From a virus (taxonomy: Duplodnaviria > Heunggongvirae > Uroviricota > Caudoviricetes), in IMG/VR virus record IMGVR_UViG_2571042690_000019: 64,000 bases of DNA; one strand, given 5' to 3'. How positions within the stretch are numbered: position 1 is the first letter of the stretch; each line of letters starts with the position of its first letter. A program made the position numbers and the translations under genes. The notes beneath the pieces were generated by a model, which saw only the letters and a list, made by a program, of their open reading frames with translations, was not told the origin of the DNA and ran no database searches. Of the stretch, positions 39,944-43,549 are shown piece by piece.

Positions 39944-40098
39944 TGGTTATCCCTCAATAAACATGACGTATTTATTAGGTTGCGGTGCCTGGTGCCTCCA
40001 GGTGACGTTAACCAGTTAACAATTAACGCCGGGATGTTTGACTTAACCACTAAGGAGGATTGTTTTAACTGTTCCGCGTGCGCATAGCCGCATTCACC

Positions 40099-40208
40099 GC
40101 AATGGTAAGAGCACTTGGCTGGCTGGGCGGCGATGACGCCTGTACGCATTTGGTGATCCGGTTCTGCTTCCGGCATTCGCTTAATTAGCCAAATACTCTT
40201 AACGTTGC
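40099..40208. repeat. long-stem hairpin element (family copy 2)
   Basis: Arms gcaatggtaagagcacttgg / ccaaatactcttaacgttgc, about 20 bp with a few mismatches, about 70-nt interior. Confidence 0.4.
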
Positions 40209-40297: not shown

Positions 40298-40399
40298 AGT
40301 GATTGTGATGGTCGGTGCTGAACTCCGACACAGGGTTGTAGCAAGCCCCGCAAAGCGCGCACTACTGTAGTTGCGGCACATCAGCCTGTGCATTCACCA

Positions 40400-40488
40400 C
40401 AATGTTGAGAACACTGGTTGTCACGCTGCAACGCAACATTTATTCGTAGATTGGGATATGACCCCGTTACGCCAGTGTTCTCAACGTT
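40400..40488. repeat. long-stem hairpin element (family copy 3)
   Basis: Arms caatgttgagaacactgg / ccagtgttctcaacgtt, 17 bp; interior about 54 nt. Confidence 0.4.
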
Positions 40489-40630
40489 ATAGTGCCGGTT
40501 ACGGTTCCGGCCAGGCCTCTTCCTCAACGGGGTGTTCTCCATACGGACTACCGTTTATTGGTCGTTCCTGCGGTTTATGTTGTGAAGCCAGATGCTTATC
40601 TTCTGGTTGCTTCAAAGAGCTGCACTTCAT

Positions 40631-40698
40631 CACAACGGTAAGAGCACTCGATGCATTTAAGCCAAGCCCCATAAGGGAGAATGCCCTTACCTGTTGTG
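40631..40698. repeat. long-stem hairpin element (family copy 4)
   Basis: Arms cacaacggtaagagca / tgcccttacctgttgtg with a one-base bulge. Confidence 0.4.
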
Positions 40699-40826
40699 TT
40701 GTGATGACCGGTGCTGATCTCCGGCTTGCGGTTATTTCAGACTCTCACGGGCGTTTAATTGCCCCGCCGAACAGCTCTTTTCCGCAATAGCTGCAATGTC
40801 TTTCGCGCATCAGCCTGCGCATTCAT

Positions 40827-40913
40827 CACAACGGTAAGGGTACTTCGTAGGGATTCGAACCCTCTGCCAAGCTCGGCGATCTCCGACGTCGCAAAATACC
40901 CTTACCTGTTGTG
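40827..40913. repeat. long-stem hairpin / tRNA-like remnant (family copy 5)
   Basis: Arms cacaacggtaagggta / tacccttacctgttgtg; interior has a T-arm-like gggattcgaaccc and a D-arm-like hairpin but no anticodon arm; abuts tRNA-Thr. Confidence 0.4.
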
Positions 40914-40914
40914 C

Positions 40915-40990
40915 TGGTGCCGATTAACGGACTCGAACCGCTGACATCCTGCTTACAAGGCAGGCGCTCTACCAACTGAGCTAAACCGGC
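40915..40990 (-). tRNA. tRNA-Thr (anticodon UGU)
   Basis: Minus-strand GCCGGTTTAGCTCAGTTGGTAGAGCGCCTGCCTTGTAAGCAGG...GGTTCGAGTCCGTTAATCGGCACCA. Confidence 0.9.
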
Positions 40991-40992
40991 AT

Positions 40993-41068
40993 TGGCGATG
41001 GTGGATGGATTTGAACCATCGACCCGTTGATTAACAGTCAACCGCTCTAACCGCTGAGCTACACCATC
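40993..41068 (-). tRNA. tRNA-Asn (anticodon GUU)
   Basis: Minus-strand GATGGTGTAGCTCAGCGGTTAGAGCGGTTGACTGTTAATCAAC...GGTTCAAATCCATCCACCATCGCCA. Confidence 0.9.
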
Positions 41069-41267
41069 ACTTGCCGGGTACGTCTCCGGCGAGGGCTTCC
41101 ACCTCCGTATGCTTTTCGGCGCACCGCGCCCTGGGTGCAATTCGGTAACAGGGGATGCACAACCCTGGCTTCCAGCGTGATTAGCGCCTTCAGCATGACG
41201 GGATATACCCGTAGTAGGATGTTATCCCAGAAAGCCATTAACCAATGGCTGTTACGCGGGAGGGACG

Positions 41268-41344
41268 TAACAGGTAAGGGCGCTGACCAGAAAGACCTGA
41301 CCCTTCTCATTCATCTGGTTAATCACACCAGCGCCCTTGCCTGT
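41268..41344. repeat. long-stem hairpin element (family copy 6)
   Basis: Arms aacaggtaagggcgctg / cagcgcccttgcctgtt, 17 bp with one mismatch. Confidence 0.4.
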
Positions 41345-41524
41345 TATGCCTCCCCGTTCCCTAATACACAGACGGGGACACTCTGCGGTCGATTTTTTGA
41401 CGGGGGACGACTCATACCCCGTGGCGTCAGGCTTCTTAGGCCGCTACCATCATCAGATCATCGTTTGCATTTACTTTAATGGTCGGGTTCTAAACCGCCG
41501 CAAAGTCGCTAACCATGACGAAAA

Positions 41525-41552
41525 CCCTAAAAAAGCCCACCCGAAGATGGGC
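41525..41552 (-). terminator. rho-independent terminator (minus strand)
   Basis: Minus-strand RNA gcccatcttcgggtgggc followed by U6. Confidence 0.4.
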
Positions 41553-41571
41553 AAATACGCTACATCTCACA

Positions 41572-41650
41572 CAAGAAAGAAGCCGACTGCCTGAGCTGGA
41601 TTCACTTTCAAATGCCCGCTGAAAGGGATCACAAGTCGGCTTCTTTCTTG
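41572..41650. other. perfect 17-bp-stem hairpin in non-coding region
   Basis: caagaaagaagccgact ... agtcggcttctttcttg with a 45-nt loop. Confidence 0.5.
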
Positions 41651-42132
41651 ATGCGGCACTCTCTCCGCCCGTCACCGCTCTGTCTCGGTTGTCGCGTTTG
41701 CCACGCCAGCCGTAACGAGGTTTAAAGTCTTTGCACGTTTCCATCACTCGACTGCCGTCTGTGGCTGTTCGTTGCAGCGGGGGTGCCTCCCCCTGGGGAT
41801 ATCCCCGGCCTTACCCCATTCTTTCAAGACACAATGCAAGGCCACATCCGCATAGGTGCATTACCGCAACATTAAGGAGACTCAGGGCAAAAGGTAACCG
41901 CCACAAAAATCCCTATGCCTCCTTAATGTTGAAGATGTGCATTGATGATTAGATGCAGCATGTACCGTTACTCTCTGCCGGACCATCATCAATGAACACC
42001 TTAAAAAGACCTTCCGTGGCTCAACATGTATTGTCGTTTACTCCGCAAAGTGCTCTCTCTGAAACCACTTTCCGCACTAAACCTGTTGAACTTTGGTCTG
42101 CTCGGTGCCAAAGCGTGCTCTTGGTTTACTAT

Positions 42133-42153
42133 ACTTTTCTAACACTTTAATTT
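42133..42153. promoter_or_regulatory. C1-operator-like site
   Basis: acttttctaacactttaattt. Confidence 0.4.
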
Positions 42154-42288
42154 GTTAATTGCTGGTGGGCATACAATAACCAATAAGTGACTATCAAGCC
42201 CAGCAAGCGAAACGTGGGTACCGCCCACCAGCAAGGAAAATTCTATGTTAAGTCATCTTCACAATCAATACATTCAAATTGTGATTTT

Positions 42289-42308
42289 AGATTTCTAACA
42301 CATTATTT
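42289..42308. promoter_or_regulatory. C1-operator-like site
   Basis: agatttctaacacattattt. Confidence 0.4.
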
Positions 42309-43511
42309 CCCGTAAAGATCTTCTACACCCCCATTCTTCTTATCCCATTCGTTCGCCCATACCCGGCAAGCGTCAATGATTTCCTGACGACGATCTCCTT
42401 GCATGAACGGAATGCTTTCATGGAAACAGCTTGGAATGCAGGCCACACTGAATACAGTATCAAACTCCGTCTGCTTGATTGCCTCCAGCGTCTCCGGACG
42501 CATTTTTAATTCATCGATTGGCGCATCCTTAGAGTCCATAATCCGGCGATATAAGCGCGGAAAATCCGTCTCCAGGTACGCCATAATTTTATCTGCGAGA
42601 CATTCGTCTATGTCGGTATTCCAGTCCTTTTCGAAGCCCGGCAGGCGATAGTAAAGCGGCGTTCCCCATACCGATGGGATCACATCCATCGTTAACAGGC
42701 GATTAGTTCTGATTTGTTGATGGTAATTAGCCGTCAGCAGTGCTTCGCCACGCTGCCCAGTTTCCGCAACCAGGCTGTGCGGATACTCATGGATGTAGGC
42801 AATGGCATCCCTTCCATCATACATAAGTGGAAATGTCTCTGGTCTTTGTCCCATGCCACAAGCACGGTTCAGATCGTGACCAAGCTGTGAACACTCTCGC
42901 TTTAATGTTTCGATAATGCTCTGCGCTGTAGCCAACTTTTTACGCAGTGTGACGCCTTCGCCTTGATAATCAATGCATTGCTGATTGAGCTTGGTTAAAC
43001 GCTCTTTTAGTTCCCGGCGCTCTCTTTTCAGCGTGCGGTTATCCTTCTCCGCAACATCCAGCCGCTTTGTCAGGCTTGGCGGATAGTCTTTTTTGTAACG
43101 GTTCAAATCGGCTTCGGCAGATTTACGCAGTGTATTTGCCTGTTCAAGACGCGCTTCCAGATTGCCGATCTCATTACGCATATTCGCGGCAAATTGATTA
43201 ACTGCATCGCCCAGGCTTTCAACTGTCGCTGATACGCCTGTGACTTGTGAAAAACGGATCAAGCCATCATTAACGGCTTGTTGGTATTCCTCAAACTGAT
43301 CCACCAGCTTATTGTAATCAACTGCCCCATCATCAAGCAGCTTGTTGATTTCCGCCACTAGGTTATCTGTAGTGGCAATGACACTCTCGTGCAGTCGCTT
43401 TGACAGGTCATCACCCGGATTCCGTTTCTGTATAAGAGCGATTTGTGTGCGCAGCGTTTCAATTGCTGTCGAGATAATTTCCAGATTAGAAGTATCAGTG
43501 TGTTGACTCAT
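42303..43511 (-). CDS. hypothetical operator-controlled protein with N-terminal coiled coil
   Basis: 402-aa ORF flanked by operator-like sites; N-terminal 200 aa predicted coiled coil. Confidence 0.5.
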   Translation of the reverse strand: MSQHTDTSNLEIISTAIETLRTQIALIQKRNPGDDLSKRLHESVIATTDNLVAEINKLLDDGAVDYNKLVDQFEEYQQAVNDGLIRFSQVTGVSATVESLGDAVNQFAANMRNEIGNLEARLEQANTLRKSAEADLNRYKKDYPPSLTKRLDVAEKDNRTLKRERRELKERLTKLNQQCIDYQGEGVTLRKKLATAQSIIETLKRECSQLGHDLNRACGMGQRPETFPLMYDGRDAIAYIHEYPHSLVAETGQRGEALLTANYHQQIRTNRLLTMDVIPSVWGTPLYYRLPGFEKDWNTDIDECLADKIMAYLETDFPRLYRRIMDSKDAPIDELKMRPETLEAIKQTEFDTVFSVACIPSCFHESIPFMQGDRRQEIIDACRVWANEWDKKNGGVEDLYGK

Positions 43512-43525
43512 TGCTATTCCCGTTA

Positions 43526-43549
43526 CTTTGTTAAATTATTTTTCTAACA
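43526..43549. promoter_or_regulatory. C1-operator-like site in promoter of 42303..43511
   Basis: attatttttctaacatatattatt, 15-35 bp upstream of the start codon. Confidence 0.45.

Follow-up and report, generated by a model that had tools for sequence, protein, structure and literature searches.

A tmRNA-like RNA without a recognisable tRNA-like domain in the tRNA-operon leader of a D6-like phage-plasmid

Introduction

A tmRNA, the RNA that serves ribosome rescue in bacteria, is defined by the presence of a tRNA-like and an mRNA-like module on one ribonucleoprotein. In the Escherichia coli form, SsrA, translation resumes at a GCA codon that has U at position -5 and A at position -4, and the stop codon of the tag lies in a small hairpin that is followed by a pseudoknot; U85 and A86 of E. 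coli tmRNA matter for frame selection. To our knowledge, all known trans-translation mechanisms need an alanyl-tRNA-like domain that is tethered to the tag template. Reduced forms have also been recorded: the 'TLD-only' tmRNA of mycobacteriophage DS6A was reported to inhibit host tmRNA, and the tmRNA database also holds CDS-less tmRNAs (PMC4131195, PMC11915505). A form that keeps the tag only is not listed in PMC4131195 or PMC11915505.

A second described system that bears on the present locus is the ban-operon leader of phage P1 (NC_005856), which comprises Pban/Op72ab, a 'dicF-like region' and trnA. The two annotations of this P1 region, a C1 operator and the 'dicF-like' note, make no mention of a tmRNA-like RNA. 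Here we describe such an RNA, 181 nt long, in the homologous region of a D6-like phage-plasmid; no prior description of it was found in the literature, and it goes unmentioned in a preprint on the P1 transcriptome (10.64898/2025.12.28.696737) and in the papers on the tmRNA database.

Results

A probable minus-strand RNA operon in the gap before the tRNA array

The window (the whole 64-kb stretch of DNA that was analysed) is identified from its sequence as a D6-like phage-plasmid of the P1 family. An earlier note on this DNA had marked a 1.2-kb gap between the tRNAs and a 402-aa gene as having no convincing ORF, and had proposed it as a locus for non-coding RNAs or as a replication or partition site. 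The first point holds, as no CDS lies between tRNA-Asn and the 402-aa gene in the PGAP annotation of the identical plasmid NZ_CP032875.1, and the longest ORF of the region, an 85-aa minus-strand frame (41490-41747), has in-frame stops on both sides in homologues and an unconserved start codon. The central part of this frame is seemingly conserved, with some synonymous changes, and its substitutions by codon position (7, 6 and 11) are free of a clear bias.

All conserved features of the region read as RNA on the tRNA strand, in the order operator and promoter, leader of about 700 nt, terminator, 181-nt RNA, family hairpin, 190 nt and tRNA-Asn, with the tRNA-Asn/Thr/Ser array downstream. Folding of the minus strand from 42240 to 41525 gave a minimum free energy of -264 kcal/mol, compared with -227 +/- 7 for shuffled sequences (z = -5.0), and the stretch 41560-41069 reached z = -3.15 against shuffles. 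We consider that the gap probably represents the 5' part of a minus-strand RNA operon and the counterpart of the P1 ban-operon leader. The features of its upstream part are as follows.

42284..42301, minus strand: D6-type C1-operator-like site (ATTTTAGATTTCTAACAC on the plus strand), just past the stop codon of the pmgS-like gene
42240..42268, minus strand: predicted sigma-70-type promoter from a consensus scan, with -35 TTGATT at 42268-42263, a 17-nt spacer and -10 TAGAAT at 42245-42240
42159..42234, minus strand: 5' stem-loop with a 12-bp stem, a perfect inverted repeat (42159-42170 / 42223-42234)
42136..42152, minus strand: second operator-like sequence of half-site quality, a direct repeat some 85-100 nt past the predicted start of transcription
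41867..42005, minus strand: two adjoining long hairpins (42005-41929 and 41931-41867), found as inverted repeats
41668..41735, minus strand: most conserved leader block, from an alignment of 19 homologues
41572..41650, minus strand: perfect 17-bp-stem hairpin, an inverted repeat (41572-41588 / 41634-41650) with a 45-nt loop
41529..41552, minus strand: intrinsic terminator from a terminator scan, GCCCAUC-UUCG-GGUGGGC followed by U6

The hairpins, minus-strand terminator, family hairpin and operator-like repeats of the earlier note were all recovered in place. A gene-poor stretch rich in inverted repeats, lying in a plasmid prophage, could in principle work at the DNA level, as an origin of replication or as a site for partition or packaging. 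A repeat search, however, returned no iterons and no repeats with at least three copies, only two-copy short repeats and hairpins; the homologous P1 stretch, the ban-operon leader, is transcribed and bears no origin or partition annotation; compensatory changes preserve RNA-type pairs, including G-U, on the tRNA strand; and the 181-nt element also occurs in virulent phages that are not maintained as plasmids. We regard a DNA-level role as extremely improbable, and the proposed replication or partition site is not upheld.

Predicted operator and promoter, and structured leader, of the D6 lineage

The motif AAATTAnnTTTCTAACAY has 12 copies in the window, one of which is the site at 42284..42301, a good copy that is placed about 15 nt upstream of the -35 hexamer, is kept in D6-lineage homologues and may be bound by the C1 repressor. 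The shorter 9-mer core of the operator gave 17 matches where 11.6 were expected, an over-representation that is not significant. In CP069647 and CP099353 a second, inverted operator copy abuts the -35 hexamer, an arrangement that resembles the bivalent Op72ab operator of P1. The direct repeats TTTCTAACAC(T/A)TTA(A/T)TT at 42136-42152 and 42292-42308 had been taken for operator-like sites. Both are members of the 12-copy motif and the right-hand one stands beside the promoter, but 42136-42152, which is kept in homologues, matches only the TTTCTAACAC half of the operator consensus. The promoter itself is predicted to start the leader/tRNA operon transcript and corresponds in position to P1 Pban; its -35 hexamer shows no variation among the five homologues whose alignment rows reach it (that of D6 begins further downstream), and its -10 hexamer is kept in five of six, the other having a 1-nt deletion.

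The structured leader of about 700 nt is confined to the D6 lineage. Its 5' stem-loop, which was not in the earlier note, shows a compensatory change in divergent plasmids, from GGGC/GCCC to GGGG/CCCC. Further along, the inverted repeat 41867-41887 / 41911-41931 has 21-nt arms that are 86% complementary with a 13-bp perfect core, caacattaaggag, and adjoins a further 21-nt inverted repeat, 41929-41949 / 41985-42005, likewise new here; the two long hairpins are 97-99% paired across six homologues, and two pairs of hairpin 41931-41867 are changed on both sides. The 17-bp hairpin carries two compensatory double changes, in CP069647 and CP099353. Over the whole leader structure, which was derived from the window sequence itself and draws its support from no more than about two independent lineages, pairing is kept in 95.4% of cells, seven pairs are changed on both sides, and 0/500 shuffles reach the covariation score. 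Within the block 41668..41735, one 30-nt bin has a single variable position among the 19 homologues, as against 7 and 14 in the adjoining bins. The block is also present in a Pantoea plasmid, and we take it to be non-coding because the overlapping ORF has stop codons in homologues.

The terminator stem (41552-41535) has 7 bp with five G-C pairs, a UUCG loop and a following T6, as in Rho-independent terminators, and forms the exact left boundary of the homology between P1 and D6. From there on, P1 and the window share terminator, 181-nt RNA and the 3' segment to tRNA-Asn at 92% identity, in the same position and on the same strand, and in both lineages a repressor operator, predicted in the case of D6, stands at the leader promoter. 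Upstream of the terminator they differ: P1 has about 170 nt that include the 'dicF-like' segment, which is not shared by the D6 lineage, and its promoter lies inside dmt, whereas the D6 lineage has an unrelated leader of about 700 nt after the pmgS-like gene and a different operator sequence. In other members of the RNA family, an unrelated hairpin takes the place of the terminator, 5' of GUUUUCG.

The 17-bp hairpin lies directly upstream of the terminator, the pair having the layout of an sRNA 3' end, and hairpin, spacer and terminator with U-run (41650-41529) together present a typical sRNA architecture. With the covariation of the hairpin, and with the different, 'dicF-like'-annotated body that precedes the same terminator in P1, this could mean that the locus makes small RNAs, either from hairpin and terminator or from the 181-nt RNA, that base-pair with host or phage mRNAs, its tag-like frame being incidental. 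Against this reading, no DicF or other sRNA family was found by Rfam at E up to 10 in P1 (locus L002, 5000-5800) or in the window (41060-42320), and base-pairing alone does not explain the coding-type constraint on the tag described below. A small RNA at the 3' end of the leader is compatible with the tmRNA-derived reading that we prefer but leaves the 181-nt RNA unaccounted for; as an explanation of the locus we judge it quite unlikely.

A 181-nt core carries a tag reading frame and a covarying pseudoknot

An Rfam scan of the region, as suggested by the earlier note, gave a sole notable match, to tmRNA_permuted across the tag (22.8 bits, E = 0.006-0.026, below the gathering threshold of 47); beta_tmRNA scored 7.9 bits (gathering 84) and RF00023 gave no match. 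A family model built in this analysis, R1, finds one copy of the RNA, hereafter the core, in the window at 186 bits. The core and the features that follow it are listed here.

41347..41527, minus strand: tmRNA-like RNA without a recognisable tRNA-like domain (the core), from Rfam, family model R1 and homology
41436..41468, minus strand: tag reading frame, GCA AAC GAU GAU CUG AUG AUG GUA GCG GCC UAA, reading ANDDLMMVAA and stop
41388..41422, minus strand: H-type pseudoknot 3' of the tag, with S1 41422-41417 / 41405-41400 and S2 loop 41411-41408 / 41391-41388
41351..41378, minus strand: terminal hairpin S3 with a conserved 13-15-nt loop, YUGUG(U)AUUAAUAA-like, situated where the T-arm of a tmRNA would be
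41259..41355, minus strand: hairpin-family copy 6, a folded inverted repeat (41259-41285 / 41329-41355; AACAGGCAAGGGCGCUG ... CAGCGCCCUUACCUGUU) directly 3' of the core
41069..41258, minus strand: conserved 3' segment into tRNA-Asn, a variable hairpin and then about 150 nt in which P1 and D6 hardly differ

From its 5' end the core consists of GUUUUCG, a D-loop analogue (UCAUGGUUAGCGAC), the resume context, the tag ORF, the pseudoknot and the terminal hairpin. The tag frame, which ends in a degradation signal of the hydrophobic-Ala-Ala type, has no start codon, neither AUG nor GUG occurring in frame between the upstream UAG and its GCA; the UAAAU that precedes it places U at -5 and A at -4. In a set of members gathered with an anchor outside the tag, all 77 have a 10-codon ORF that opens with Ala and stops at codon 11. 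Tag codons vary synonymously (codon 1 GCA/GCU, codon 2 AAC/AAU, codon 10 GCC/GCG/GCU), which argues for translation of the tag, and other phages carry the tags ANDNTFLAVA, ANDSEVLMAA, ANEEMYLAVA and ANDDVVLMAA. The resume signal reads UAAAU before GCA in the window, UAACU before GCU in ZQ1 and UAAUC before GCU in S118, with the UAA at -5 to -3 invariant.

Stem S2 of the pseudoknot is 100% paired and each of its four pairs is changed on both sides; its complement is present in 72/73 members, and five variants occur (GUCG/CGAC, CCGA/UCGG, CCAG/CUGG, CCAA/UUGG and UAGAA/UUCUA). The covariation score of the core was 0.249 compared with 0.140 for shuffled alignments, and was reached by 0/500 shuffles. 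Hairpin S3 likewise keeps its pairing while its stem differs by lineage: UCCCCGU/ACGGGGA, AUCC/GGAU, GCCCUGA/UCAGGGC, ACCCCGU/ACGGGGU and GCCC/GGGC. On the 5' side of the tag, a PK1-like pseudoknot was not identified in the core.

The motif of the family hairpin also flanks the core in L031, L023, L249 and Bas77. For the 3' segment 41069..41258, no match to an Rfam family or an ORF was found, and long-range helices sought in it by column covariation among P1-type sequences were swamped by P1/D6 clade linkage.

The core is widespread among unrelated phages

The core family was found in 692 phage records and 618 plasmid records. It is present in P1, in D6-type phage-plasmids, which are frequent in clinical E. 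coli and Salmonella, and in virulent phages of the therapeutic type (Kuttervirus, Felixounavirus, N4-like); core-bearing phages include Ackermannviridae, Ounavirinae, Schitoviridae, Roufvirus and siphoviruses, and the core usually lies inside tRNA clusters. In several phage genomes the strand opposite the element bears the annotation of a 'hypothetical protein'.

This distribution bears on whether the core is the decaying remnant of a tmRNA gene that was once captured, and the region a functionless processing leader or spacer of the tRNA operon. The tRNA-like domain needed for tmRNA function is absent, the Rfam score is below threshold, and tRNA arrays, in which the core sits, abound in spacer hairpins. 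Yet the domain-less architecture persists across unrelated phage families, virulent ones included, with compensatory changes that preserve the pairing of both pseudoknot and hairpin, with an invariant tag length and synonymous codon changes; and in Bas77 the core adjoins no tRNA and has a predicted promoter of its own. A relic is thus very unlikely. The proposal of a non-coding RNA locus, by comparison, is borne out by the covarying leader hairpins together with this widely conserved, tmRNA-related structured RNA.

The core resembles the tag half of phage two-piece tmRNAs

A 20-mer around the resume codon retrieves phage contigs with bona fide permuted tmRNAs, recognised by ARAGORN and by Rfam at 100-144 bits; the genes used for comparison are IMG/VR loci L008, L019, L032, L045 and L065 (RF01850 / RF04321). 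Their resume context is identical to that of the window, AAAGUAAAU followed by GCA AAC GAU GA. Both they and the core have a 5' D-loop analogue, UCAUGGUU.CGA, a tag of the form AND...(L/V/I)AA with a stop after it and, beyond the tag, an H-type pseudoknot whose third loop is A-rich. The bona fide genes have, in addition, an acceptor piece (T-arm GGCGGUUCGAUUCCGCC, then CAUCUCC-A-CCA) some 200 nt upstream and a GGGGAUG acceptor strand, both of which are absent from the core; the terminal hairpin with its conserved loop, in turn, is found in the core only. No named phage with a bona fide permuted tmRNA was matched in INPHARED. We conclude that the core probably descends from a phage two-piece tmRNA gene of the beta-proteobacterial type and has lost its acceptor stem, T-arm and CCA end.

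With E. coli SsrA (RF00023) the core shares the resume codon GCA, its upstream U (-5) and A (-4), the stop codon in a small hairpin and the pseudoknot that follows. The tags of the two, ANDENYALAA in SsrA and ANDDLMMVAA in the core, both have 10 residues, begin with AND and end with AA. The core differs in its length (181 nt versus 363 nt) and in having no acceptor stem, G3:U70, T-arm, CCA, PK1, PK3 or PK4, and sequence similarity is limited to GCAAACGA. The 15-mer AGTAAATGCAAACGA matches mostly unrelated bacterial genomes, among the matches listed, presumably in their own tmRNAs. A crude RNAduplex search for pairing between the core and E. coli ssrA gave no signal, 16/40 shuffles being as good. 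The stable RNAs rnaC and rnaD of T4 were rejected as homologues, their best R1 match reaching 4 bits.

Search for a tRNA-like half

If the core were part of an ordinary functional tmRNA, its tRNA-like domain would have been missed, either because it is divergent in cis or because it lies on a separate acceptor piece elsewhere in the phage. Such a reading agrees with the peptide-level constraint on the tag, which implies trans-translation, and with the two-piece nature of the bona fide relatives. ARAGORN with default settings, however, was negative for tmRNA in the window, in P1 and D6 and in six further phages, the Rfam tmRNA models were also negative at their thresholds, and no acceptor stem, T-arm or CCA end was found for the core by ARAGORN, Rfam or T-loop scans. 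With relaxed settings (-ps80), ARAGORN returned low-score one-piece tmRNA models that use the tag of the window.

Some candidate elements were found nearby. A T-loop scan of all 64 kb gave only the four tRNAs and one hairpin-embedded T-arm, GAGGGUUCGAAUCCCU, in the family hairpin 40916-40822, which also contains a GCGAC motif similar to the one in the core. Ackermannviridae have tRNA-like RNAs, their T-arms good and their CCA ends present, at 10-200 nt from the core, and in L067 and FSL SP-058 the sequence just 3' of S3 pairs with the region of GUUUUCG at the 5' end. Neither G3:U70 nor an acceptor strand that would pair with the core, however, is present in any of the candidate tRNA-like elements. 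A separate acceptor piece was likewise not detected by T-loop and acceptor-complement scans of the 64-kb window, about 28 kb of the replicon lying outside it.

Alignment of the core with the bona fide genes L019, L045 and L065 showed that the GGGGNUG acceptor strand is absent and that GUUUUCG aligns with the pre-acceptor leader. Upstream of the core, where an acceptor piece would be located, there is only an unrelated hairpin or terminator or, in Bas77, a promoter. In Bas77, L023 and L078 the core is present with no T-arm or tRNA within several kb, and the consensus-like promoter of Bas77 ends about 10 nt before GGUUUUCG, directly preceding the core; this predicted promoter indicates that the core RNA is autonomous. 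Together, these observations make an ordinary tmRNA with an overlooked tRNA-like domain unlikely.

Discussion

Support for the core comes from homology, structure, covariation, a peptide-type constraint on the tag and a wide distribution among phages. Like the DS6A TLD-only tmRNA and the CDS-less tmRNAs, the core is a reduced derivative that keeps one of two functional modules, but as their mirror image: those forms have a tRNA-like domain without a tag template, the core a tag template without a tRNA-like domain.

The features described above allow us to propose a mechanism. The sigma-70 promoter at 42268-42240, beside the D6-type C1 operator, would drive the structured leader of about 700 nt, which would end at the terminator 41552-41529; read-through transcripts would run into the 181-nt RNA, the processing-type hairpin, the 190 conserved nt and the tRNA-Asn/Thr/Ser array. 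The core RNA would be made in lytic or derepressed growth and released by tRNA-processing enzymes, and the leader may, through the upstream hairpin and terminator, give rise to a small RNA of its own as well. Host ribosomes would then decode the tag frame as part of a process connected with trans-translation. Most likely, the core would compete with or replace the mRNA-like domain of host tmRNA-SmpB, giving the phage control of tagging; alternatively, it may titrate SmpB or rescue factors.

How the tag might be decoded is far less certain than the anatomy of the locus and its tmRNA-derived identity. That P1, D6 and hundreds of further enterobacterial phages encode a free-standing 'mRNA-like domain' RNA, whose tag is decoded without a tRNA-like domain of its own, is a possibility that we put forward tentatively, with more doubt than confidence. 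Decoding could proceed by capture of ribosomes already entered by host tmRNA-SmpB, whereby the host tag would be swapped for the phage tag, or by structure-driven, initiator-independent entry at the Ala codon. The proposed decoding has no precedent, since no tethered alanyl-tRNA-like domain was found in the core.

A conserved, covarying family that holds only the tag may represent a new way to feed a tag template to ribosomes, or else be a sign that an acceptor RNA, so far undiscovered, is provided in trans. The element accounts for an unannotated gap in hundreds of phage genomes, and the question that it raises is open to direct testing by standard P1 genetics. If either mode of decoding is true, the phage would control ribosome rescue and the proteolytic fate of the rescued proteins. 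Given its presence in P1, in D6-type phage-plasmids and in virulent phages, the core family is relevant to the way in which infecting phages deal with ribosome rescue and ClpXP/SspB proteolysis in the host.

Genomic context of the region

Sequence identity of 41070–42300, flanks included, is 100% with ~92-kb E. coli plasmids (for example, NZ_CP032875.1) and 98% with phage D6, which places the window among the D6-like plasmid prophages of the P1 family. On the minus strand lie the genes for tRNA-Asn, tRNA-Thr and tRNA-Ser as well as a 402-aa pmgS-like gene, and the region is therefore read in that direction. Its P1 equivalent is, according to the P1 annotation, the ban operon leader, in which Pban with the bivalent C1 operator Op72ab is followed by a 'dicF-like' segment, ~480 nt of unannotated sequence and trnA (tRNA-Asn). 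Identity between the window and P1 (92%) is limited to 41000–41555, with the homology edge exactly at a terminator stem; 41556–42300 is D6-lineage-specific and present in 120 plasmid records.

The structural elements described in the earlier note were all located: a perfect 17-bp inverted repeat (41572–41588/41634–41650), a second inverted repeat (41867–41887/41911–41931), a minus-strand terminator (41552–41535 plus T6), a copy of the family hairpin, a repeated motif (41259–41285/41329–41355), and two operator-like repeats (42136–42152 and 42292–42308). The region also holds no credible ORF, as had been proposed: PGAP annotates none, and the longest is stop-interrupted in homologues. This longest candidate, an 85-aa minus-strand ORF, was rejected on its interrupting stops and unclear codon-position bias. 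Both halves of the region fold significantly more stably than shuffled sequence (z = −5.0 and z = −3.15). Of the two functions suggested for it, a non-coding RNA locus was borne out, in the form of a tmRNA-like RNA and a folded leader; an origin or partition site was not supported, and a DNA-level site of this kind is unlikely.

A tmRNA-like core related to two-piece phage tmRNAs

The sole noteworthy Rfam match in the region, also found in P1, was to tmRNA_permuted (41436–41541, minus strand; 22.8 bits, E = 0.006–0.026, below the gathering score). It contains the frame UAAAU GCA AAC GAU GAU CUG AUG AUG GUA GCG GCC UAA, which encodes ANDDLMMVAA followed by a stop and has no in-frame start codon. 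A 20-mer spanning the resume codon matched at least 120 viral contigs, some of which hold complete permuted (two-piece) tmRNA genes as called by ARAGORN, with tags such as ANDERFALAA, ANDEKFRIAA and ANDDVYNLALAA. These bona fide phage tmRNAs score 100–144 bits in Rfam as tmRNA_permuted or beta_tmRNA, and share with the P1/D6 core a D-loop analogue (UCAUGGUU.CGA), the resume context and the post-tag pseudoknot. Unlike the core, they carry a GGGGNUG acceptor strand and, ~200 nt upstream, an acceptor piece; the conserved 5′ GUUUUCG of the core aligns to the leader ahead of that strand.

A covariance model of the core, built from 12 diverse members, found exactly one copy in the window (41527–41347, minus strand; 186 bits). 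The pseudoknot helix, in which the post-tag hairpin loop pairs with the 4 bases 5′ of an invariant CGCA, was paired in all sequences of a structure-blind MAFFT alignment, with 4/4 pairs changed on both sides. Five versions of the helix are known in the family (GUCG/CGAC, CCGA/UCGG, CCAG/CUGG, CCAA/UUGG and UAGAA/UUCUA). The overall covariation score of the core was 0.249, as against 0.140 in shuffles, and was attained by 0/500 shuffles. The stem of the post-tag hairpin and that of the terminal hairpin vary in sequence by lineage with pairing retained, and the terminal loop is conserved (YUGUG(U)AUUAAUAA).

For a non-circular test of the tag, members were gathered by a 15-mer located 5′ of the resume codon. 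In 77/77 unique members the frame was 10 codons long, with Ala first and a stop at codon 11.

Codon use in 46 distinct tag-region sequences
Codon 1: GCA (42), GCU (4)
Codon 2: AAC (41), AAU (4), AAA (1)
Codon 10: GCC (29), GCG (11), GCU (5), CCC (1)
Stop: UAA (44), UAG (2)

Tags in other phages include ANDNTFLAVA, ANDNAFLAVA, ANDSEVLMAA, ANEEMYLAVA and ANDDVVLMAA. A translated, ssrA-like degron has this pattern. A pure relic is an unlikely description of the core.

Downstream of the core in phage FSL SP-058 lies a terminator (L262 1749–1779; UUUGCCCAUCUCCCUUGAUGGGCUUUUUUU) whose 5′ arm, UUUGCCCAUCU, is common to the terminator upstream of the P1/D6 core (window 41529–41555) and is similar, too, to the T-stem plus acceptor 3′ strand (CCGCCCAUCUCC) of bona fide phage tmRNAs.

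Search for a tRNA-like domain

ARAGORN with default settings called zero tmRNAs in the window, P1, D6, Klebsiella plasmids and six other phages. A T-loop scan of the full 64 kb recovered only the four tRNAs and one T-arm inside the family hairpin at 40916–40822, and an acceptor 3′ strand complementary to the core was not found within the window. The core of siphovirus Bas77 has a near-consensus promoter (TTGACA, 17 nt, TAGATT) ending ~10 nt ahead of GGUUUUCG, and neither a tRNA nor a T-arm was found within 5 kb; there the core is probably an autonomous transcript without an upstream acceptor piece.

The main rival explanation is that the core is served by a divergent or trans-acting acceptor. 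Relaxed ARAGORN thresholds did give low-score one-piece models that use the same tag, with unconvincing tRNA-like halves. In the Ackermannviridae, the core is adjoined by odd tRNA-like RNAs whose T-arms and CCA ends are good; they carry acceptor strands of their own and lack G3:U70. On comparative sequence evidence, the core is probably a new and widespread tmRNA variant without the tRNA-like half.

Several tRNA-like elements were noted in passing. The family hairpins are long and imperfect, with 20–25-bp stems on ACAACAGGUAAGGG...CCCUUACC(U)GUUGU, and occupy inter-tRNA spaces (minus strand, 40925–40810, 40710–40615 and 40500–40385, within 40385–40925; also 41360–41255); the motif also flanks the core in the unrelated phages L031, L023, L249 and Bas77. 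Inside the hairpin at 40916–40822 (minus strand) are a perfect T-arm (GAGGGUUCGAAUCCCU) and, similar to the core 5′ end, a UUUUGCGAC motif; the hairpin resembles a tRNA-like or TLD-like RNA whose acceptor stem is too long. Salmonella phage S118 (Kuttervirus; L259 843–2924) and phage ZQ1 (L263 1690–1812) carry, besides the core, several non-canonical tRNA-like RNAs in a ~2-kb gap without a CDS or ARAGORN tRNA call; recognised by neither ARAGORN nor Rfam, they have good T-arms and CCA ends and no anticodon arm (for example GCCGUU, an 8-bp arm, UUUGGGUUCGACUCCUAAA, AACGGC-U-CCA, beginning 8 nt past the core). Klebsiella plasmid CP067502.1 has two tRNA-like sequences uncalled by ARAGORN downstream of its Klebsiella-type core (L003 2830–2905 and 3318–3400), one reading GCAAACA...AGUGGUUCGAUUCCGCU UGUUUGC G CCA and the other with the T-arm GCGGGUUCGAUUCCCGC. 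Phage T4 rnaC, the stable 'species 1' RNA (L265 2909–3047), begins AUCGAUUCGAGG and ends in a canonical T-arm (CCGGGUUCGAAUCCCGG) and acceptor-like 3′ strand, reminiscent of the tmRNA tRNA-like domain; by the core model it is not homologous to the core.

Distribution of the core

The P1/D6 block occurs in 618 plasmid records, and a Klebsiella-type core query retrieved 692 phage records by blastn, including Kuttervirus, Aglimvirinae, Suspvirus, Felixounavirus, Schitoviridae, an Aeromonas Roufvirus and several siphoviruses; phage members were confirmed by the core model at 96–131 bits. The core usually lies within phage tRNA clusters, on the tRNA strand, and is unannotated or under an overlapping 'hypothetical protein' annotation. 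The searchable literature yielded no description of this RNA. In a systematic tmRNA survey covering RefSeq phages and plasmids, ssrA was reported from mycobacteriophages only (PMC4131195), the 2025 tmRNA database lists forms without a tag CDS and no tag-only form (PMC11915505), and a kuttervirus genome announcement gives zero tmRNAs (PMC10112204).

In the IncY P1-like plasmid NZ_CP020936.1 (L005 1286–2590), a truncated core (model positions 33–138 only) lies ~40 nt downstream of the end of an IS-borne TnpB gene, and the RNA seems to have been naturally disrupted there. Elsewhere in the window, Rfam matches 39981–40101 (minus strand), between tciA and tRNA-Ser, to the gammaproteobacterial sRNA STnc100 below threshold (40.1 bits; gathering 47).

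Predicted promoter, putative operators and D6-type leader

Features of the D6-type leader
42284–42301: operator-like copy, good motif match
42268–42263 (−35, TTGATT) and 42245–42240 (−10, TAGAAT), minus strand: sigma-70-like promoter with a 17-nt spacer, directly downstream of the pmgS-like stop codon
42234–42159, minus strand: 12-bp stem-loop opening the predicted transcript
42136–42152: operator-like copy matching half of the motif only
42005–41867, minus strand: two long hairpins, followed by GC-rich hairpins
41735–41668, minus strand: nearly invariant ~70-nt block, also in a Pantoea plasmid, followed by the 17-bp hairpin and then the terminator

In aligned homologues the −35 is invariant in 5/5 covering it and the −10 is retained in 5/6. 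The motif AAATTAnnTTTCTAACAY occurs in 12 copies in the window (3514, 15029, 15681, 20934, 31862, 33272, 42137, 42293, 43542, 44585, 54487 and 55692; the copy at 43542 precedes the pmgS-like gene), which are probably operators of a D6-type C1 repressor. Their layout is like that of the P1 C1 operator, which is asymmetric; the P1 sequence (ATTGCTCTAATAAATTT) differs. Two divergent plasmids have an additional inverted operator copy abutting the −35 hexamer, the same paired arrangement as P1 Op72ab. We infer that the leader promoter is under repressor control.

Across 6 homologues, 95.4% of cells in the leader helices are paired, with 7 pairs altered on both sides, and 0/500 shuffles score as high; covariation support is moderate, because the homologues amount to some two independent lineages and the window sequence itself supplied the tested structure. 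The 17-bp hairpin, spacer and terminator are arranged as at the 3′ end of an sRNA. A plain sRNA locus is an unlikely reading of the region. P1 has the same terminator but unlike sequence ahead of it, and the 'dicF-like' label has no Rfam support in P1 or in the window. Plasmids of E. coli O7:H4 and E. marmotae (L253 and L254; CP069647 and CP099353) have a P1-type 'dicF-like' segment (GCGACAGGCGCGGCGGUAAG...) as an insertion separating the D6-type leader from the core, at about 1440–1590, equivalent to window 41556; the leader is thus modular and mosaic.

Proposed role

The operon would be C1-repressed in the lysogen and expressed upon induction, as is P1 ban. Terminator read-through would supply the core and the tRNAs, and RNase P and other tRNA-processing enzymes, along with the family hairpins, would release the core. 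Our best guess is that host ribosomes decode the tag frame in a process connected with trans-translation. Since the tag shows translated-type constraint, we favour as most likely that the core is a competitor of, or a replacement for, the mRNA-like domain in host tmRNA–SmpB, which is the weakest part of the argument and has no precedent; titration of rescue factors is less likely. The proposed tmRNA variant without a tRNA-like half is located in the classic phage P1 family, where it is directly testable.
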